Below are positions 17,629-26,908 of a stretch of DNA of 64,000 nucleotides, piece by piece. The DNA is from an uncultured Gammaproteobacteria bacterium (GTDB lineage Bacteria; Pseudomonadota; Gammaproteobacteria; CAVYTG01): positions 105,820 to 169,819 of the forward strand of contig CAVYTG010000001.1 in assembly GCA_963771515.1 (NCBI GenBank), in the 5' to 3' direction. Both the position numbers and the translations under genes were made by a program. The first letter of the stretch is position 1. Each line of letters begins with the position of its first letter. The notes beneath the pieces were generated by a model. It made no database searches. It was not told the origin of the DNA and was given only the letters and a program-made list of their open reading frames with translations.

Positions 17629-18825
17629 ATGAATTTATCCAACTATGATGTAGATGAAAAAAGAGGTTTTTTACCTTCTTATAATCCATTAAGAAAATTA
17701 CCCGACAAATATAAAGCTTGGGATGAATGTATAAAGCATTTACCTAAATATTTAATATCGGGGCATGTAAGAAAACATTTAGATTTATTGCCGACTTTAT
17801 CGATAGAAGAACTCGATGATGAGCCTAAGCTAAACAGAGCTATGTTGCTTCTTTCATATTTTGGTCATGCTTATGTTTGGGGAGAAAATAAGGCAGCCGA
17901 TACCATTCCTGCGAATATTGCAAAACCTTGGGTTGCTGTCTCAGAAAAATTAGGTCGTCCGCCTGTATTATCTTATGCTTCTCACGCGCTAAATAATTGG
18001 TATCTTGAAGATAACGAAAAACCTATTGAGCTAGGAAATATTGTGAGAATGCACAATTTTGAAGGGGGATTTGATGAAGATTGGTTTGTATTAATTCATA
18101 TTGCAATAGAAGGCGTTGCTCCGCCAGCGATTAAGGCAATTATTAATTTACAAGACCATGTTAAAACGTCTGATCCGAAATCTGCTTTAGCGAGTTTGAC
18201 AATTTTATCTGAGCAGATTGATAAAATAGTGAAAATCCTTAAAAGAATGCCAGAGAACTGTGACCCTTATATATATTACCATCGCGTTAGAAGGTTTATT
18301 TTTGGGTGGATGGGCAACCCTGTCATTCCTGAAGGTGTTTACTACGATGGTGTCGAAAAATGGAATGGAAAACCTCAACAATTTAGAGGAGAAACAGGGG
18401 CTCAAAGCTCAATTATTCCATGTCTTGATGCTGGGCTTGGTTTAGAGTTTGATCCTAATAGCCCTTTATATAAGCACTTAATAGAATTAAGAGATTACAT
18501 GCCTCCTTTACATCGACAGCTTGTTATTGACCTGGAAAAAGCAGAGAAACAGAACTCTGTTAGGGTATTTATCAAAAATAATGCAAAAAATTATCCGAAA
18601 CTTATTGACCTTTACAATGAATGTTTGGAAGGCATTTATCAGTTTAGGCTACAACATTTAAATTTTGCAAAAGCCTATATAAACATTCAAGCAGAAAGAG
18701 CTTCTAGCCCTGTCAATGTTGGAACAGGGGGCACCCCCTTTATAAAATATCTTGGGGATCATTGTGATGAAGTATTAAAACAAAAATTGACCCATGTTCA
18801 TCAAGATGAATTAGTTCAAGCCTGA
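17629..18825 (+). CDS. Indoleamine 2,3-dioxygenase (IDO)-family heme dioxygenase homologue
   Basis: Collinear with human IDO1 from memory: YDVDEKRGFLPSYNPLRKLPDKYKAWDECIKHLPKYL against [42 protein letters not shown] against MAYVWG; RGETGAQSSIIPCLDAGLG against AGGSAGQSSVFQCFDVLLG; LRDYMPPLHRQ against MRRYMPPAHRN; GTGGTPFIKYL against GTGGTDLMNFL. Confidence 0.75.
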   Translation: MNLSNYDVDEKRGFLPSYNPLRKLPDKYKAWDECIKHLPKYLISGHVRKHLDLLPTLSIEELDDEPKLNRAMLLLSYFGHAYVWGENKAADTIPANIAKPWVAVSEKLGRPPVLSYASHALNNWYLEDNEKPIELGNIVRMHNFEGGFDEDWFVLIHIAIEGVAPPAIKAIINLQDHVKTSDPKSALASLTILSEQIDKIVKILKRMPENCDPYIYYHRVRRFIFGWMGNPVIPEGVYYDGVEKWNGKPQQFRGETGAQSSIIPCLDAGLGLEFDPNSPLYKHLIELRDYMPPLHRQLVIDLEKAEKQNSVRVFIKNNAKNYPKLIDLYNECLEGIYQFRLQHLNFAKAYINIQAERASSPVNVGTGGTPFIKYLGDHCDEVLKQKLTHVHQDELVQA

Positions 18826-18872
18826 TTTGGCGTACCCTAATCTAAAATTGCTTATAGGCTCACAAATAATTT

Positions 18873-19850
18873 TTGAGGTTTATGATGGACCACTATCGTT
18901 CTTTTATTGATACCTGGGATAACTATGCCACGGTAAGATCTAGACCAAGACGGCTAATAGATGCTAACCATGTTCATGAAGTTTATCATTATCCCATTTC
19001 TCGAATGCCTGTTGCTGTGCATCCCATTGTTGCTGCAAAAGGAGATTCTTTTTTAAAGAAAATGCTTGCTCAAGCCTGTGTTTTTTACTTGAAATCGATT
19101 GCAAGTCTTGAAACAGAAGTCATAAATAAAGCTGCTTTAACACTCATCAATGGAAATTTATCTCATATAATACCTGAGCCTTTAAAGCTAGACCTACTCA
19201 GCATAGTTGTAGATGAAGCCTATCATGCGCATGTCGCCAGAGATTATAGTTTGCAGTTAAAAAATTTATTAGATTTACCTGATGTTTATGCAAATATTTA
19301 TTCAGATTTAGGCCATTCAATCACCAAGCATATGAGTGATTTAAAGCCTGACTGTCAAGATGACTTTCTGGTCATAGCCGTATGTATAGGGGAACACACT
19401 TTAACCCCAGAAATAGCGAGTATGGGGCGCGAGGAAAATGTTGCTTCAAGTTTTACTGGCCTGATGAAAGACCATGTTACAGATGAAGGTCGTCATGCAA
19501 CCTTATTTAAGCATGTTCTGAAATTAGTTTGGGCAAACTTAACTCTGATAAAAAAGCAATCTATTTCAAAAGTATTACCTCATTTTGTCAAAGAATATCT
19601 ATCTGAAAGCTATGCTAAAAAATTTATAAAAGATTTGCTCTTACACGAAAAAATCAGTGAACAAGAGGTCGATAAAATCATGAAAGAAAGTTTTCATCAA
19701 TGTTACTTAGGCGAAAACAATAGTTCTTTCAGAAATATTTGTAAATTGTTTCAGTCTTCAAGTTTATTGGATGACCCTTTATTGGTATCAGAATTTCAAA
19801 AAAATCGTATAGACATAGGAATTGAGAAGTGCGTAGACTCAACTTTATAG
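18873..19850 (+). CDS. Ferritin-like diiron-carboxylate oxygenase candidate (AurF/CmlI-like N-oxygenase or heme-oxygenase-like diiron oxidase)
   Basis: Two E-x(~30)-[DE]ExxH pairs: ...LETE...(x33)...DEAYHAH and ...GEHTL...(x28)...DEGRHAT. 325 aa, no TM. Assignment rests on motif spacing only. Confidence 0.35.
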   Translation: MRFMMDHYRSFIDTWDNYATVRSRPRRLIDANHVHEVYHYPISRMPVAVHPIVAAKGDSFLKKMLAQACVFYLKSIASLETEVINKAALTLINGNLSHIIPEPLKLDLLSIVVDEAYHAHVARDYSLQLKNLLDLPDVYANIYSDLGHSITKHMSDLKPDCQDDFLVIAVCIGEHTLTPEIASMGREENVASSFTGLMKDHVTDEGRHATLFKHVLKLVWANLTLIKKQSISKVLPHFVKEYLSESYAKKFIKDLLLHEKISEQEVDKIMKESFHQCYLGENNSSFRNICKLFQSSSLLDDPLLVSEFQKNRIDIGIEKCVDSTL

Positions 19851-22800
19851 TCAGAGGAGAATCAAATTTTACGCTTAGGTGTATCCAGGCGCTCTCTGAT
19901 CTCGGTCATAATATATTATGCCTTGAAACCGAAAATGTAAAAATTCTAGAATTTGCATCTAAAGAAAACATAGATAGTGTTCAGCCTAGTGAGCAATCAA
20001 AAACCCAGGATACAAACAGTATCTATGTTTCAATAGATGCTCTCGGCGACCCTTCTCATCCTTTAAATAATATAGCGTGTCATATTCGACTACATAGGGT
20101 TGAACCTGAAGATAATAAAAATAAAAGCTACTGGAGCGTTGACTTAAAAAATAATGTTTATTTAAAACAACCTCCCCAAGATCTGCTCGCGGATGAAGAT
20201 GAGCTTTTAACAAATTTAGAGTTTATCATCAATCAATTTGCCAGATTAGGACTTCATGATCCTGGTCTAAAAGAAGCAAGTTCAAATAACTTTGTCACAG
20301 AAATCCCTATTGCTTCAGAGCTTGATTATAGATATATATTAGGAGGATTATTATTTTTTATTTCTCTATTTAAAAAAGAAGAACTCATAGAATTAACCCT
20401 TCCTGTCAATGATATGGGTTTCTTCTATCCAGATTTCCAAGGAAAACTTCAAAAAGCTGAAAAGTATGAGATTAATTTAAGCCAAGTACACACCCCTTCT
20501 CATTTGCTTTCAGTCGTAGATCAAACGCTCCAGGATTTTAAAGGAAATCATAATCTTTTTTGTCTCTCCAGTTGCCTATACTTTAAATTCGATGTTGAGG
20601 ATACCCAAAAATTGGGTTTATATCTCTCAACATTTAATAAACTATTTTTATTACATAAGGGGCAAAAAAAACAAGACATACAGAATCTTATCCGCCTTTT
20701 CAGGCTGATTTATGAGGCTATTTCAAGTGTGCAAAACCTAGATTGCTCGCTTAATGATCTCAACTTAGTTGATTTGGATACCATAAAATTTTTAAGTCAA
20801 ATAGGTGGCTTTACTCACTACCACCCGCCCCAAGCAGAAGAAACAATTATTTCTGCTATTTCAAAAAACATTAAAAATTATCCTGATCACATTGCAATTG
20901 AATATAGTGATCAGTCATTAACCTACGAAGCGCTGGGGAAGCTTTCTGTCCATTTATCTAAGCAAATTTCAAAAAAACTAGGTCCCGTAAAATCTGCAAA
21001 GATTATTCTTTGTGTTGAAAGAGGAATTAATCTGGTTGCTACCATTTTAGCAATCTGGCGCTTAGGACATGCGTATGTTCCGGTTGCTTTAGATTTCCCA
21101 GAAGAAAGAATGCTTGAAATTATTCAGCAATTAAACGAACCTCTTATAATTACTGATCATAATCGAGCTGATTTTTTTACACACTATCCTAATTTTATCA
21201 ATTTATCTACGTTAGCATTAGAAAAAAGGAATGATCTTGATTTGAGCCAAGAAGAGCTCATGACAGGAATCTCTGGTGATGATCTTGCTTATATCATCTA
21301 TACCTCTGGTTCTACAGGGGCTCCCAAAGGCGTTATGATGCATCATAAAGGTGCACTTAACATGATACAATGGACTGTAGAAAACTACCCCATTACTTCA
21401 AAGGATAAAGTGATACAAATGGCATCCTTTGCTTTTGATTTTTCAGTCTGGGAAATGATGTCGGCTCTTACCTCAGCTGCTTGCTTGGTTCTCACAGAAG
21501 AGAAAAAATATAGAGATCCAAGGTATTTAGTCAATCTAATAAGAGAAAAACAAATTACGATTCTTGGATGTGTGACTTCTTTGTTTCGATATCTGTTAGA
21601 TGAACCTGGATTCTCTCAATGCACTAGCTTAAAACGAATAGTAGTCGGTGCTGAACCTTTAACTCTTTCTATAAAAAATAAACTGTACGAAATTCACCCT
21701 CATGTCACCTTATATCATGGTTATGGACCAACTGAAACAGCGATAACATCTGTTCATTGGGAATGTCCAAATACTTATAACCATTTAGATATACCGATTG
21801 GAAAGCCCATAGCGAACACCAAAGTTGCTGTAGTCTCTGAATCTCTTAAAATACTACCACCAGGGTTGCCTGGTGAGCTCCTAATTGGTGGCATTGGTGT
21901 AGGGCGAGGGTATCTCAATCAAAGTGATCTTACAAACCAAAAATTTATTCATTTAAATATCTTAGGAGATACCGATTTATTTTATAGAACGGGTGATATC
22001 GTTCGGTGGAGTGGCAATCATTTAATTTTTGTTGGTCGTAAAGATCAAATGATAAAGTTACATGGCCTGCGCATAGAGTTAGAGGAAATTGAAAAGGCGA
22101 TGGAATCTCTAGCTTATATCAAGGCAGCTGCTGTTAAATTTCATAAAAATGAAAAACGAGCTTCGCTTATCGGATATTTTATTGTAGAACCGTCCCAACT
22201 GACTAAAAATGAAAATTTAACCCAAAAGCATTTAAATTTATGGAAAAATTTTTATGATGATTCGTACAAAGATTCACACAATCGACATGAAACAACATTT
22301 AATACCGTTGGTTGGAAAAGCACTTTTACAAATCAGGAATATTCCTCTGATTTGATGAAAGAATGGAGGGATGAAATTGTAGAATTAATCCTAGGATACA
22401 ACCCTAATAACGTTCTTGAAATTGGTTGCGGAACAGGTCTTATTTACCATGCTCTAAAAGGAAAAATCAAAAAATATATTGGAATAGATTATGCTCAAGT
22501 CATTATTGACAGAATGCTGAGCACAGAAGCTGCTGAGATAGAATTAGGAAAAAGCAACTTTTTCCACTGCTCCGCCAATAAGATAGAAAAAATTAAGCCT
22601 CTTTTGGATAATGCGCTCCCCATTGACTGTGTCGTGATTAATTCTGTTGTCCAGTATTTCCCTAGCACTGAGTTTCTAGAAAACGTCTTAGATAAGATTA
22701 TAAAATACATAAATCCTAACTATATTGTTTTAGGAGACATATTGGATTTTAGAACAAACAAACTTTTTTATGAAAAAGAATATTCTGTTAAGAAAGAACT

Positions 22801-25800
22801 GGGGCATATTTCCCTTTCAAAAACAGAGTTTATACAAAATCGCTTAAAGACAGAAAAAGAACTTTTTATTCATCCAGTTTTTTTCATAGACTTTGCTAAA
22901 AAAAATCGTGCACTACAATCCATTGGTCTATTTCCTAAAATGGGTGTTGGAAGTACCGAGATGAATCAATTCAGATATAATGTTGTACTATCCACTCAAC
23001 ATGGAAGCAAGATAAAAGCAAATTCTATACTATGCAAAAATCCTCTGGAAATAAAAAAGCAAATTCAAACCCAAGCACTCATTAAAACGGATAACCATTG
23101 GCTAAATTGTACTGATGGTTCTCATCATACCAGGCGTTTACCTAAAGAAATACAGCTTGAAATGAAACAAAGTGGTCTAGATGTAAATATTGTACTTGAC
23201 CCGTTAACGCCAGAATATCTCTATATCATTAAAGATGAAAATTTTGGTCACTTGCAAAGTCTAGATTCACAAAATCTACGCTCAGAAGGGAAAAATGTTA
23301 TTCACTATTCCAATGTAACTTCTCTATTAAAAGAAGAAGTAATCTCAAAAGTAATATTCGAAGACTTACAAAAAAAATTACCACACTATATGATTCCAAG
23401 CCTTTTTAAACAGCTTGAAGTATTTCCGATGACCTCGAGTGGTAAAGTTGACAAGAAGCGTTTACCTACCATTATAGAACTTGAAGCTGCGCTATCTGAT
23501 AATCCAGAAGAAGCAAAATTACAAAAAATTCTTTCAGAAGCCATCGGAATAAAATCAATAGGAATAGATGAAAATTTCTTCTCTTCAGGTGGAAATTCCT
23601 TATCAGCGATTAATGCAGTGTACAAAATTACAGAAAATTTTGACGTGGATTTCTTTGTTAAAGATTTATTCGAATTTGATTCTGCAAAAAAAGTTGCTCA
23701 ATTTATAAAAGATAATAGAAAAAATAAAGTAACCAAAATAAAAAAGCAGCCCTTTGAGCGTTATTCTGATTTTCTTTTAACCCATGCACAAAATAGGTTG
23801 TGGTTCCTACATAAACTTGATGAGCAAAAATCTAGCGCATATAACGTACCTCTGTTAATAAAATTAAACGGACATCTAAATATTAAAAAGCTTAAGGATT
23901 CCATCAATACACTTATTTCAAAACATGATGCTTTAAGATTAATCTTTATTGATAAAAAAGGAATAGCATTCCAGAAAATTTTAGAGAAATATGAGATTGA
24001 GCTGCCTGTTGTCGACTTTCCTTCCCATCAAGCTACTTTAAAAGGAATCAACGATGTCATTAATCAGCCTTTTAAGTTAGATACAACCCCCCCCATTAGG
24101 TTTACTATATTCACAAAGAATAATTTAGCCCAATACCTGGTTATTGTAATACATAATATCATAACAGACGGTTGGTCTATGTCGTTACTTATTGATCAGC
24201 TTTATAAAATCTATAACGACCAGGAGGAAGCTTTTCAAGCTCATAATCCTTTAGGATTTATACAAGAATATTTACCATTTACTTCCAATAAACCCAAAAG
24301 CTATTACTTAGAAGGCATAAATTACTGGAAAGAATACTTAAATAATTTTGTGGAATTAAACTTCCCTTATCCTTATAAAAACGTAAAAAAAGTAGAAAAT
24401 CATTTAGAGTCAAAAAGGGAAACTTTATCAGGCGAAACGATAAGTAATATATATCAGGTAGCAAGCCATTATAACGTTTCACCTTTTGCCATTATTAAAT
24501 CCACTTTTGCTGTTTTGCTGAATAAATACACGCAACAAGAAGACATTGTTTTTGGTTCAGTATTGTCAAATAGGGAGCTACAGTCTTTAAAAGATGTTAT
24601 TGGATTTATGGTGAATACAGTCGTATTTCGGTATAAACTTGACGAAGCCACGATCTTTAAAGATTTAATAGTTCAGGCTCAAAACTCTACGAGGTTGGCA
24701 TATAGCTATCAAGATATTCCCTTTGAAGATGTTGTTAAACAAGTGACAAAATCTCGTTGCTTGAACAAAACCCCAATTTTTCAATTTATGTTTATTTCAC
24801 AAGACGTGAGTGAGATAAACACCCTGAAGCTTGGAGAATGCTACTGTAAAGTAGTGCCATCAGCGCCAAATCAAGCAATGTTTGCAATGACTTTCAATTA
24901 TGTTCTTACAAAAAAGGACCTAAAGGTTGATATTTACTATGATGCTTCTCTTTTCTCTCCGACTTCAATTGACCATTTTTTAGCAAATTTTTTCCATTTA
25001 CTAAAAACATTGTTAAATAACCCCTTGGGGCTGATCGAAAAGGTTTCTATCGTTTCTGAACATGAAAGGAACTTGCTATTAACTCAGTATAATCCTAAGC
25101 CTGATAGAAATCTCGTCAATAAATTAGTTTACCCCTTGTTTCATGAAGCTGCGTATGAAAATTTAGATAGAATAGCCTGTTTAGATGAAACAGGCAGTAC
25201 TACGTACAAAGCGCTATTATCCCAGGTTAATAAGTTTTCTAATATTCTTTCTGTCCCAACAAATGTTGCTACGGCAGCCATTATTTCGACTCCTGGTATC
25301 TTATCAACCGCGCTTGCATTGGCTTGCTTAAAATGTGGTATTACTATTGTTTTTATAGACCCAAGTCTACCTGCTAGCCGAATAGAATATATGCTTAAAG
25401 CATCCAAAACCGATATTTTATTTTCTCATGAATTAAATAATGCTATAACGATTCCAAAAAACATTCAGTGTTACCATTTTGCTCACGATGAAACAGTAGC
25501 AAGTACAGAAAAAGGCTTTAATATTGTAAAGGAGGTTACACCTGATCATTGCGCATACATTGTGTTTACTTCTGGAACAACAGGAGCGCCAAAAGCTGTA
25601 CAAGTGTTACAGCGTAATCTTGCTAATGCAATTTTGCATTTTAGAAAAGTACTTAATATGGGCCAACTTGATAAAGTATTAAGTATGACACGCCCCAGTT
25701 TCGATATTTTTTATTTAGAGATGCTCCTTCCCATTATATCAGGGTCTAGTGTTCAATTTATGCACCCAGATTTGAGTATTGACCCATCTGAAATCATTAA

Positions 25801-26893
25801 AAATATAAGTAACTTTGAACCCACCCTCATTCAAGCAACGCCCTCTAGATGGGAGTTAATACGCGCTGAATATATTTCGAAAGAAAAAAACTTTCATGTT
25901 CCTAAAATACTAACTGGTGGGGAACCTCTTTCACATCAACTGCTAACATTTTTATACAGTCAATCTGATCTATTGCTGAATGTTTATGGTCCCAGTGAAA
26001 CCACAATCTGGTCAACTGAATATAAATTCGGTAATGTGAGTCAAATTATATCCATAGGCAAACCTATATCAAATACAGAATGTTATATTTTAGATAAACA
26101 CAAGAACATAATACCAATAAATGCGATAGGGGAGCTATATATCGGTGGAGAAGGCGTAACCAAAGGCTATCTGAATGACACTTTAAAAAATAAAGCAGCT
26201 TTTTTCAACATAAGATTAGACAATGAAAATAAATATTTATATAAAACAGGAGATTTAGCTTCTTGGGATGAAGAAGGGAATTTACTATTTCATGGAAGAG
26301 TAGATAAGCAGATAAAAATAAGAGGATACCGTATTGAACCCGGTGAAATACTATTTTATTTAAAAAAATATCCAAGCGTTGAACATGCCCATGTTTTATT
26401 TCAAAAAGATCAGTCAACCTTGTGTGCCTTTATTAAGGTAAAAAAGAGCTATGAAGATCAATTCAATACTTCACAACTGAATGCTTTTTTGAAGCAAGAA
26501 TTACCCGAATATATGATTCCTTCCCATTATTATATCGTTGAAAATATACCGTTAAGTGTTAATGGAAAGGTAGACGAATTTGCTTTGAATAACTTGAGAG
26601 AAAAACAGTCTTATCAAGAGGTAAAAAATATTAAATTACCTTCCAATGATTTACAAAGCAAGCTTTGTACGATTTGGCAAAACGCTTTAAATATAGATGA
26701 ATTTAGCGTAGACAGCAGCTTCTATGAATTAGGAGGACATTCTCTTTTGGCGCCCAAGATTGTCTGGGAAATTAATGCGATATTTGGCTGTGATTTAACC
26801 ATAAGAAACTTTATTACGAACAATACCATAGAAAAATTGGCCATTTTTATAAAAGATAGGCAGGTTACTATGGTTGCCTCTGAAGTAGATTAA
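19829..26893 (+). CDS. Bimodular nonribosomal peptide synthetase: unknown N-terminal ~330-aa region, then A (with embedded N-methyltransferase), T, C (HNxxxDG), A, T; no TE/R domain
   Basis: Module 1 A motifs: LTYEALG, LAYIIYTSGSTGAPKGV, FDFSVWE, YGPTETAI, GELLIGGIGVGRGYLN, YRTGDIVRW, GRKDQMIKLHGLRIELEEIE; MT insert VLEIGCGTGL; then LPHYMIPS and SGKVDKKRLP. T1 is FFSSGGNSLSAI. C has HAQNRLWFL and IHNIITDGWS. Module 2 A motifs: YIVFTSGTTGAPKAV, NVYGPSETTI, GELYIGGEGVTKGYLN, YKTGDLASW, GRVDKQIKIRGYRIEPGEI, NGKVDEFAL. T2 is LGGHSLLAPKI. Its start overlaps the upstream gene by 22 nt. Confidence 0.9.
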   Translation: MRRLNFIVRGESNFTLRCIQALSDLGHNILCLETENVKILEFASKENIDSVQPSEQSKTQDTNSIYVSIDALGDPSHPLNNIACHIRLHRVEPEDNKNKSYWSVDLKNNVYLKQPPQDLLADEDELLTNLEFIINQFARLGLHDPGLKEASSNNFVTEIPIASELDYRYILGGLLFFISLFKKEELIELTLPVNDMGFFYPDFQGKLQKAEKYEINLSQVHTPSHLLSVVDQTLQDFKGNHNLFCLSSCLYFKFDVEDTQKLGLYLSTFNKLFLLHKGQKKQDIQNLIRLFRLIYEAISSVQNLDCSLNDLNLVDLDTIKFLSQIGGFTHYHPPQAEETIISAISKNIKNYPDHIAIEYSDQSLTYEALGKLSVHLSKQISKKLGPVKSAKIILCVERGINLVATILAIWRLGHAYVPVALDFPEERMLEIIQQLNEPLIITDHNRADFFTHYPNFINLSTLALEKRNDLDLSQEELMTGISGDDLAYIIYTSGSTGAPKGVMMHHKGALNMIQWTVENYPITSKDKVIQMASFAFDFSVWEMMSALTSAACLVLTEEKKYRDPRYLVNLIREKQITILGCVTSLFRYLLDEPGFSQCTSLKRIVVGAEPLTLSIKNKLYEIHPHVTLYHGYGPTETAITSVHWECPNTYNHLDIPIGKPIANTKVAVVSESLKILPPGLPGELLIGGIGVGRGYLNQSDLTNQKFIHLNILGDTDLFYRTGDIVRWSGNHLIFVGRKDQMIKLHGLRIELEEIEKAMESLAYIKAAAVKFHKNEKRASLIGYFIVEPSQLTKNENLTQKHLNLWKNFYDDSYKDSHNRHETTFNTVGWKSTFTNQEYSSDLMKEWRDEIVELILGYNPNNVLEIGCGTGLIYHALKGKIKKYIGIDYAQVIIDRMLSTEAAEIELGKSNFFHCSANKIEKIKPLLDNALPIDCVVINSVVQYFPSTEFLENVLDKIIKYINPNYIVLGDILDFRTNKLFYEKEYSVKKELGHISLSKTEFIQNRLKTEKELFIHPVFFIDFAKKNRALQSIGLFPKMGVGSTEMNQFRYNVVLSTQHGSKIKANSILCKNPLEIKKQIQTQALIKTDNHWLNCTDGSHHTRRLPKEIQLEMKQSGLDVNIVLDPLTPEYLYIIKDENFGHLQSLDSQNLRSEGKNVIHYSNVTSLLKEEVISKVIFEDLQKKLPHYMIPSLFKQLEVFPMTSSGKVDKKRLPTIIELEAALSDNPEEAKLQKILSEAIGIKSIGIDENFFSSGGNSLSAINAVYKITENFDVDFFVKDLFEFDSAKKVAQFIKDNRKNKVTKIKKQPFERYSDFLLTHAQNRLWFLHKLDEQKSSAYNVPLLIKLNGHLNIKKLKDSINTLISKHDALRLIFIDKKGIAFQKILEKYEIELPVVDFPSHQATLKGINDVINQPFKLDTTPPIRFTIFTKNNLAQYLVIVIHNIITDGWSMSLLIDQLYKIYNDQEEAFQAHNPLGFIQEYLPFTSNKPKSYYLEGINYWKEYLNNFVELNFPYPYKNVKKVENHLESKRETLSGETISNIYQVASHYNVSPFAIIKSTFAVLLNKYTQQEDIVFGSVLSNRELQSLKDVIGFMVNTVVFRYKLDEATIFKDLIVQAQNSTRLAYSYQDIPFEDVVKQVTKSRCLNKTPIFQFMFISQDVSEINTLKLGECYCKVVPSAPNQAMFAMTFNYVLTKKDLKVDIYYDASLFSPTSIDHFLANFFHLLKTLLNNPLGLIEKVSIVSEHERNLLLTQYNPKPDRNLVNKLVYPLFHEAAYENLDRIACLDETGSTTYKALLSQVNKFSNILSVPTNVATAAIISTPGILSTALALACLKCGITIVFIDPSLPASRIEYMLKASKTDILFSHELNNAITIPKNIQCYHFAHDETVASTEKGFNIVKEVTPDHCAYIVFTSGTTGAPKAVQVLQRNLANAILHFRKVLNMGQLDKVLSMTRPSFDIFYLEMLLPIISGSSVQFMHPDLSIDPSEIIKNISNFEPTLIQATPSRWELIRAEYISKEKNFHVPKILTGGEPLSHQLLTFLYSQSDLLLNVYGPSETTIWSTEYKFGNVSQIISIGKPISNTECYILDKHKNIIPINAIGELYIGGEGVTKGYLNDTLKNKAAFFNIRLDNENKYLYKTGDLASWDEEGNLLFHGRVDKQIKIRGYRIEPGEILFYLKKYPSVEHAHVLFQKDQSTLCAFIKVKKSYEDQFNTSQLNAFLKQELPEYMIPSHYYIVENIPLSVNGKVDEFALNNLREKQSYQEVKNIKLPSNDLQSKLCTIWQNALNIDEFSVDSSFYELGGHSLLAPKIVWEINAIFGCDLTIRNFITNNTIEKLAIFIKDRQVTMVASEVD

Positions 26894-26908
26894 TAATATT
26901 GGTGAAGT

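Follow-up and report, generated by a model that had tools for sequence, protein, structure and literature searches.

In the HHxxxDG motif (C3), the second histidine has been described as invariant in the condensation (C) domains of nonribosomal peptide synthetases (NRPSs) (Rausch 2007, PMC1894796), which raises the question of what a C domain does when this residue is naturally replaced. The stretch of 64,000 nucleotides analyzed here (the window; contig CAVYTG010000001.1 of an uncultured gammaproteobacterium) poses this question in a single gene. Its open reading frame (ORF) list, translation and Pfam domains reveal a dimodular NRPS of 2354 amino acids at 19829..26893 on the plus strand, whose C domain (23774..25081, +; ORF residues 1316-1751; Pfam PF00668), LCL-like in fold and sequence, carries the motif I-H-N-I-I-T-D-G-W-S (24149..24178, +). 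The C domain is real, folded and under constraint, and sequencing error and gene decay are excluded. In the reading that we consider probable, HNxxxDG is a genuine, selectively maintained variant in an LCL-like domain that still condenses, with the asparagine in a positioning role and Asp1659 perhaps as a helper.

The domain matched PF00668 with 264.1 bits against a cut-off of 30.6 and covered profile positions 6-456 of 456. A first-pass annotation had pointed to HN instead of HH in the only C3-type motif that the C domain has, and the translation of the ORF as well as the single Pfam Condensation match agree with this. The codon positions given there (24153-24155 and 24156-24158) were one base too high; His1442 is encoded by CAT at 24152-24154 and Asn1443 by AAT at 24155-24157. 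Reading H-N-I-I-T-D-G, the motif lacks the second histidine of the canonical HHxxxDG shared by LCL, DCL and starter domains.

That the asparagine stands at the position of the second histidine, with the first one kept, was borne out by three types of alignment. When the domain was aligned to 12 homologues with MAFFT, the first histidine proved invariant, and all 12 had histidine where the window has asparagine. Phmmer searches against solved C domains paired hniitdgws with HHMIVDGWS of DhbF (5u89), HHIVSDGWS of Txo2 (6p1j) and HHILLDGWS of BacC (9rde). Finally, a hidden Markov model (HMM) alignment set His138 of Escherichia coli EntF opposite Asn1443 and EntF Arg278 opposite Arg270 of the domain; both EntF residues carry their literature numbering, which validates the register of this alignment. 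Another histidine in the catalytic position was sought as a refutation, and no alignment places one there. Among the twelve histidines of the domain, only His130 (domain numbering), the first of the motif, is conserved among orthologues.

The asparagine might stem from faulty sequencing or assembly, or from gene decay in a reduced genome by a mutation that inactivated the gene recently. The change from CAT to AAT involves a single base, and the small host genome of about 2.0 Mb would fit with decay. However, a Logan assembly of run ERR11718636 (L002, 13,921 nt) is identical to window positions 13895-27815 with 0 mismatches and reproduces the AAT codon, and the asparagine recurs, as AAT or AAC, at five orthologous loci in other samples. 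The 2354-codon ORF is intact and uninterrupted within AT-rich DNA, and all core motifs are present. Because the independent assembly is identical and five other loci encode HN, an assembly error is effectively excluded, and we regard error or decay as having a negligible probability.

The five further loci lie on contigs with the same cassette and were reached via homologues of the adjacent indoleamine 2,3-dioxygenase family (IDO) gene and their genomic contexts. The cassette comprises a major facilitator superfamily (MFS) transporter, IDO, an AurF-like diiron N-oxygenase and an NRPS of the order A-T-C-A-T, in which A denotes adenylation and T carrier domains. Locus L003 (SRR9179562) carries MFS, IDO, AurF-like, an NRPS of 2047 aa and a methyltransferase; L004 (SRR26329229) AurF-like, an NRPS of 1801 aa, IDO and MFS; and L086 (JGI 3300068172) AurF-like, an NRPS of 1803 aa, IDO, MFS and a protein of 520 aa without assigned function. 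L087 (SRR32456875) holds a partial NRPS, IDO and MFS, and L089 (ERZ27272697) a partial NRPS and IDO. The L087 contig is recorded in at least 20 sequencing samples, and this member of the family is thus common somewhere.

HNIITDGWS is identical in all six NRPSs, which come from six assemblies, and it reads (Q)HNIITDGWS in the five others. No other block of the C domain is as conserved as this nonapeptide of the active site, and overall the domains are strongly diverged: the window shares 27.5% identity with L003 or L004, L003 and L004 share 36.5%, and L004, L086 and L087 share 54-59% among each other. At the same time, the motif codons differ synonymously (CAT/CAC, AAT/AAC, ATC/ATT/ATA, ACA/ACG/ACC, GAC/GAT, GGT/GGG/GGA/GGC and TCT/TCA). 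Synonymous codon variation together with an invariant nonapeptide at low overall identity is the mark of purifying selection at the protein level, which here extends to the asparagine.

The remainder of the cassette is conserved as well. Across loci, the AurF-like proteins are 33-66%, the MFS proteins 42-63% and the IDO proteins 52-59% identical. The specificity codes of the first adenylation domain (A1), DFWGVGGITK, DFWGKAGITK and DIWHVGGITK, follow the pattern D[FI]W[GH][VK][GA]GITK, and those of the second (A2), DILQLGVIWK, DILALGVIWK, DILAIVVIWK and DILQ-GLIWK, the glycine-like pattern DIL[QA]..[VL]IWK. We consider the cassettes orthologous because of their synteny, the partner identities and the conserved A-domain codes. 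The window, L003, L004 and L086 all combine HNIITDGWS and an aspartate at position 347 of the C domain (see below) with the A1 code, the glycine-like A2 code and adjacent IDO, AurF-like and MFS genes, and in the partial loci L087 and L089 every one of these features that lies within the contig is present. IDO similarity alone was rejected as a marker of the cassette, as the IDO homologues P0295 (L005) and P0300 (L090) do not lie beside an NRPS. We found no prior description of an IDO/AurF-like/NRPS/MFS cassette in the literature; the HNIITDGWS C domains are a small, previously undescribed group tied to it.

To place the substitution in context, we extracted C-type domains from the NRPS proteins returned by our searches and read the column aligned to Asn1443; this background is biased toward relatives of the query, which are the relevant comparison. 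Histidine occupied the column in 858 of 862 domains, none of which had asparagine. In a set of 1135 C domains with at least 350 aligned positions each, the counts were 1129 His, two Pro and one each of Ser, Glu, Ala and Tyr, again with no Asn. A metagenome scan with a three-member alignment was saturated by the generic C1 pattern [HF]AQ[NQI]RLWF; its 80 hits were C domains of the ordinary kind, and no further HN member came to light (174 HH and 0 HN motifs in the 80 loci). With the C domain or the complete NRPS itself as query, a word-indexed search of 5.8 billion proteins, a HMMER search of 1.84 billion representatives and a scan of GTDB genomes found neither an HN C domain nor a homologue above about 32% identity; the representative search was dominated by megasynthases with multiple C domains, whose summed scores would bury single-domain relatives. 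No mention of HNxxxDG or HNxxxD was found in the literature searched. Going by these sequence counts, the His-to-Asn substitution is far beyond chance. A glycine acceptor was rejected as the explanation for HN, since HH is found in 50 of the 50 other glycine-accepting C domains of the set.

The fold of the domain was examined with an AlphaFold2 (AF2) model built from a 13-sequence alignment (predicted local distance difference test, pLDDT, 80.4; predicted template modeling score, pTM, 0.80). The model shows the two-lobed, chloramphenicol-acetyltransferase-like fold with a strand at 122-130, the motif loop and a helix at 136-150, and its template modeling (TM) scores against elongation C domains that are catalytic (Txo2, DhbF, TycC6, SrfA-C and FscG) range from 0.75 to 0.83. 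By sequence, the closest solved relatives are DhbF, Txo2, BacC, TycC6 and SrfA-C, to which the model has TM scores of 0.80-0.83; E-values were 1e-41 to 1e-33 for catalytic LCL domains versus 1e-13 to 1e-14 for X domains. We take the elongation domains of DhbF, Txo2, TycC6 and SrfA-C to be of the LCL type. Pfam detected no epimerization (E) domain in the window NRPS and hence none preceding the C domain; this and the E-values to elongation domains are the grounds on which we classify the domain as LCL-like by sequence.

Like the LCL elongation domains TycC6 (2JGP), SrfA-C (2VSQ), DhbF (5U89) and Txo2 (6P1J), the window domain belongs to PF00668, has the two-lobed fold and is placed in the order T-C-A; motifs C1, C2, C5, C6 and C7 are recognizable, and the Asp, Gly, Trp and Ser of C3 are kept. 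Unlike them, it has asparagine for the second histidine, aspartate for the asparagine that ends the strand FQVMFxLQN, and a degenerate C4. Downstream of C4, an LxxDxxRP-like sequence is present in L003 and L004 and degenerate in the window. A heterocyclization (Cy) domain does not match, as the first motif position is His and not Asp and the acceptor code is glycine-like.

Natural loss of the second histidine with retention of the C fold, as seen in the window, is known from the X domain (HRxxxDD), interface (I) domains, the MxgE C domain (HPxxxDG) and the LovB CON domain (HRxxxDG), and in several of these cases trans-acting oxygenases are associated (PMC1894796, PMC13638107, PMC13492342). The HN domain could by analogy be a selected non-catalytic scaffold that makes no peptide bond itself and, like glycopeptide X domains or I domains, brings one of the neighboring enzymes, IDO or the AurF-like oxygenase, to a substrate on a carrier domain. 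X domains recruit P450s and I domains β-hydroxylases, both without the second histidine (PMC1894796, PMC13638107); the AF2 model superposes on X domains with a TM score of 0.83, and oxygenase genes are always adjacent to the NRPS. Nevertheless, in every member it is the sole C domain that joins two complete modules, and the conserved glycine module would lead nowhere if no condensation took place, whereas X, I, MxgE and LovB CON domains sit at special positions (before a thioesterase (TE), before the A domain of the hydroxylated residue, or in a polyketide synthase) and are not the sole intermodule link. X and I domains have also lost the rest of the loop, while here the loop residues Asp135, Gly136, Trp137 and Ser138, the C1 arginine and the structural residues are invariant in the family, and the active-site nonapeptide is its most conserved block. 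Catalytic LCL domains are by far the closer matches by E-value. X domains further replace the motif glycine (PMC1894796), while MxgE and LovB CON keep D and G; the histidine is replaced by Arg or Pro in X, MxgE and LovB CON and by Asn in the window. The window domain retains D-G, lies between two modules and has neither a P450 nor a TE in its surroundings, and compared with I domains it shares the loss of the second histidine but keeps the rest of the loop invariant and is followed by a module whose glycine-like acceptor is not β-hydroxylatable. We therefore consider a scaffold role quite improbable. Of the first-pass proposals, inactivity by decay is now unlikely given the invariant HNIITDGWS, the synonymous codons and the intact other motifs, and a selected structural role is less likely; an alternative catalytic arrangement and a specialized activity are both viable and look alike at the sequence level.

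If the domain is an active LCL-like variant, as we favor, other residues may compensate for the missing histidine. Five family members have 65 invariant positions in common, and at just two of these, Asn131 (0%) and Asp347 (8%), the residue is rare (<10%) in the background of 1135 domains. Position 347 corresponds to Asp1659 (GAC, 24803..24805, +), at the end of the strand FQxMFxxQ-D (341-346 in the AF2 model). It is Asp in all six family members, including L089, versus 68% Asn and 8% Asp in the background; in glycine-accepting C domains Asp347 is about twofold enriched (8/50 vs 76/996). The position may correspond to a conserved asparagine that is listed among the catalytically important residues, VibH Asn335 (Rausch 2007, PMC1894796). 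The same study names as structural or folding residues Arg62 and Arg67 (TycB1 numbering), the motif's first His as well as its Asp and Gly, Trp202 and Arg263/278 (PMC1894796), and the window C domain possesses this set; R58, H130, D135, G136, W188 and R270 are family-invariant and match the majority residue of the 1135 C domains. Arg11 of motif C1 is likewise invariant in the family. We assume it to be the equivalent of FscG R2577, an arginine that blocks the acceptor channel and touches the acceptor phosphopantetheine arm (PMC8097023).

Based on these findings, we propose a working model in which the domain would form an amide bond between the residue bound to the first carrier domain (T1) and glycine bound to the second (T2). 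A2 loads the acceptor substrate of the C domain. The donor residue on T1 would probably be N-methylated in the window and possibly derived from tryptophan or kynurenine. Orienting the glycine amine, which is unhindered, would fall to the carboxamide of the Asn in place of the histidine, and Asp1659 may step in as a base or to accept a hydrogen bond. As there is no release domain, the dipeptidyl thioester would probably exit by spontaneous diketopiperazine formation, by analogy with known systems. The product of the cassette would then be a residue1-Gly dipeptide or diketopiperazine, with residue 1 possibly N-oxygenated on an arylamine.

Such a model is compatible with what is known of the second histidine. 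The first-pass annotation had called it the catalytic base; the position was correct, while the role as base is debated and reviews favor substrate positioning (PMC10510592, PMC11546977). Several C domains stay active after mutation of this residue, and Cy domains lack it altogether (PMC10510592). A close parallel is streptothricin ORF18 (HQxxxDM), which like the window domain has an amide side chain at the second-histidine position; it is experimentally active, and mutation of the Gln lowers its activity (PMC11546977). Unlike the window protein, ORF18 consists of C and peptidyl carrier protein domains, its acceptor is the aminoglycoside streptothrisamine, and the motif glycine is also replaced (DM) (PMC11546977). 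The third C domain of FscG (fuscachelin; HHxxxDE; PDB 7KVW, 7KW0), one of the best structural matches, accepts glycine as predicted for the window. There, an extra Glu carboxylate helps to orient the glycine amine, and modified motifs are more common with small acceptors (PMC8097023). In contrast to the window domain, FscG C3 keeps the second histidine, and its extra carboxylate is located at the motif Gly position instead of position 347.

Several points weigh against this reading. The FscG mutant H2697Q, in which His is replaced by Gln as the nearest analogue of Asn and which represents the one glycine-accepting C domain tested, retained about 1% activity (PMC8097023), and by analogy asparagine alone may be a poor catalyst unless other changes compensate. 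As to such a change, EntF Asn350, the presumed counterpart of VibH Asn335, aligns three residues upstream of position 347 in the HMM alignment, and Asp at this position is not unique to the family, given its occurrence in 8% of C domains. The helper role of Asp1659 is a proposal from sequence and presumes that this residue lies close to Asn1443. Pairwise BLAST does not place the window C domain nearer to its five counterparts than to LCL domains of the ordinary kind, so that a single origin of the HN state is argued from synteny and from characters in common and not from a tree. Finally, we infer condensation activity, the nature of residue 1 and a diketopiperazine as the product.

The genomic partners suggest a further alternative, in which the domain performs specialized chemistry: the nucleophile or donor would be N-oxygenated by the AurF-like enzyme (a hydroxylamine or an arylamine-derived group), or the domain would catalyze cyclative release of the dipeptide. 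The exchanges His to Asn and Asn to Asp would then be adaptations to a different nucleophile or to a second reaction. In line with this, HN and Asp347 strictly co-occur with the IDO and AurF-like cassette, and the pair is absent from the 50 other glycine-accepting C domains; the AurF-like protein retains all seven residues of the diiron-ligand type and may be translationally coupled to the NRPS; and no release domain was found in any of the window, L003, L004 and L086 NRPSs. Relatives with altered motifs (Cy, terminal C (CT), E and dehydrating domains) are moreover known to carry out non-canonical reactions (PMC10510592, PMC13638107). On the other hand, the remainder of the domain is of the ordinary LCL elongation type, Asp235 and Lys517 are retained in both A domains, as is typical for α-amino acid substrates, and no sequence feature points to another nucleophile. 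Spontaneous diketopiperazine release, moreover, requires no catalyst (PMC11942691). Taken together, we consider specialized chemistry unlikely.

For the condensing domain that we prefer, a precedent in pathway logic is offered by AacA/AacB of Aspergillus aculeatus, which resembles the window in having the order A1-T1-C-A2-T2 without a release domain and a stand-alone methyltransferase (PMC11942691). AacA produces the Kyn-containing diketopiperazine aspkyncin by spontaneous release, and IDO genes are found in homologous clusters (PMC11942691). In fungal NRPS clusters such as those for aspkyncin and terreazepine, IDO can supply L-kynurenine (PMC11942691, PMC7448278). The comparison was made by domain order and gene content and does not imply homology; unlike the window, the AacA systems are fungal and lack an AurF-like N-oxygenase, and the partner amino acid is N-methyl-Ala and not of the Gly type.

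Pfam analysis of the window NRPS gave the architecture Nterm-A(MT)-T-C-A-T, where MT denotes a methyltransferase domain, and detected no TE, reductase (R) or terminal C domain in the protein. The N-terminal extension of about 345 aa (19829..20863, +) has no detectable family: it yielded no Pfam or NCBIfam match even at E=10 and no match among 279 NRPS proteins, and its AF2 single-sequence model was unusable (pLDDT 36). It shares 40% identity over 42 aa with the N-terminus of L003, and its first ~50 residues are common to the orthologues, with a similar start, LNFxVxGxN...GH, also in L004 and L086; the extension measures about 395 aa in L003 and about 150-170 aa in L004 and L086. In the window, its first 30 residues may resemble the beginning of a Rossmann fold of the formyltransferase type.

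A1 follows at 20864..23467 (+; Pfam; core 20864-22192, C-terminal subdomain ~23369-23467). Its Pfam span covers ORF residues 346-696, and it aligns in two parts, 337-788 plus 1181-1213, around an inserted methyltransferase domain (~22358-22840, +; residues ~844-1004; Pfam). The insertion is found in the window NRPS only; A1 of L003, L004 and L086 aligns uninterrupted to GrsA. Extraction against GrsA gave the A1 code DFWGVGGITK, with GrsA's own DAWTIAAICK recovered as a control; as judged from its residues, the A1 code gives no confident substrate assignment. T1 (23516..23728, +; Pfam PP-binding in two stretches) has an intact phosphopantetheine-attachment motif GGNS at residue 1254. Downstream of the C domain, A2 (25136..26581, +) carries the glycine-like code DILQLGVIWK and T2 (26660..26848, +; residues 2278-2340) the motif GGHS, and the protein terminates there without a release domain. 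Each of the two carriers has its serine, and the core motifs of the A domains are in place.

The NRPS gene is part of a tight row at 13941-27757, in which all genes lie on one strand with gaps of 2-47 nt and one overlap of 22 nt; a MatE gene lies upstream of the row. The first gene (13941..15521, +) encodes a 526-aa protein that has no Pfam or NCBIfam match and whose hydrophobic stretches suggest a membrane protein. Across 132 aa it is 22% identical (E 2e-6) to the protein of 520 aa that follows the MFS gene in L086 (10162-11724), and from this weak similarity it may belong to the cassette as an accessory component. A mitochondrial-carrier-family protein comes next (15524..16375, +; Pfam PF00153, Mito_carr, E 1.8e-22); this eukaryote-type transporter is absent from the gene lists of L003, L004 and L086. 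It is followed by the MFS transporter (16382..17626, +; Pfam), which is 42-51% identical to the MFS genes of the other cassettes, and by the IDO family haem enzyme (17629..18825, +; Pfam PF01231, E 1.7e-97), whose homologues at 52-57% identity adjoin the orthologous NRPSs.

The AurF-like diiron N-oxygenase (18873..19850, +; Pfam PF11583, E 7.6e-11) is 33-36% identical to its cassette orthologues and has seven conserved residues of the metal-ligand type (E82, E115, H118, E174, H201, E205 and H208), a pattern that we take to be that of arylamine N-oxygenases such as AurF. The end of its ORF overlaps the GTG start of the NRPS by 22 nt, which, with the listed start, suggests translational coupling. 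A stand-alone S-adenosylmethionine-dependent methyltransferase of the UbiE/COQ5-like type (26909..27757, +; Pfam and NCBIfam) closes the row; it is 43% identical to the methyltransferase of L003, which likewise lies after the NRPS.

The GC content of the cluster block (~12000-28000) is 0.32-0.38, compared to 0.40-0.45 in the flanks. The block is bordered by ileS, a 5-formyltetrahydrofolate (5-formyl-THF) cyclo-ligase gene and 6S RNA (8115-11909) on one side and by pepP and a ubiH-like gene (29132-31596) on the other, an arrangement that presumably matches that of gammaproteobacteria. The low-GC block thus suggests an island inserted into a conserved gammaproteobacterial neighborhood. The only RNA genes in the window are 6S RNA and one tRNA. 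The 6S RNA (80 bits; 11726-11909, -) overlaps the 5' end of the cyclo-ligase ORF (11153-11830, -; TTG start), and the listed start of this ORF is probably too far upstream.

With regard to the host, it looks like an intracellular gammaproteobacterium with a genome of about 2.0 Mb. The window encodes a 630-aa protein with ankyrin repeats and a WD40 β-propeller (59395-61287, +), a eukaryote-like architecture typical of intracellular bacteria such as Legionellales. Its ATP synthase beta sequence is a singleton upon clustering at 90% identity. Near the cassette, L086 carries a gene (13423-13740) whose product has a C-terminal domain of the Legionella collagen-like type (Lcl_C). The cassette as such occurs in low-GC bacteria. 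Only tentatively do we extend our reading to a picture in which natural elongation C domains without the second histidine, built around an Asn and Asp347 center, would have co-evolved, in intracellular bacteria resembling Legionellales, with an IDO and arylamine-type N-oxygenase pathway whose product is an N-oxygenated metabolite of the kynurenine-glycine diketopiperazine type.

Whether the second histidine acts as general base, transition-state stabilizer or substrate positioner is still debated (PMC11546977, PMC10510592), and the evidence comes almost entirely from laboratory mutants. The family described here offers a natural, selected asparagine in an otherwise ordinary elongation domain, within about the smallest two-module synthetase and in six divergent orthologues, and is therefore a compact experimental system. 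If it is true that these domains work without the second histidine, they would provide a natural system to settle its role. There is also a consequence for genome mining, where tools that deduce inactivity of a C domain from a missing second histidine would misjudge this cluster family, whose IDO/AurF-like/NRPS/MFS cassette we flag as undescribed and as residing in low-GC, probably host-associated bacteria.

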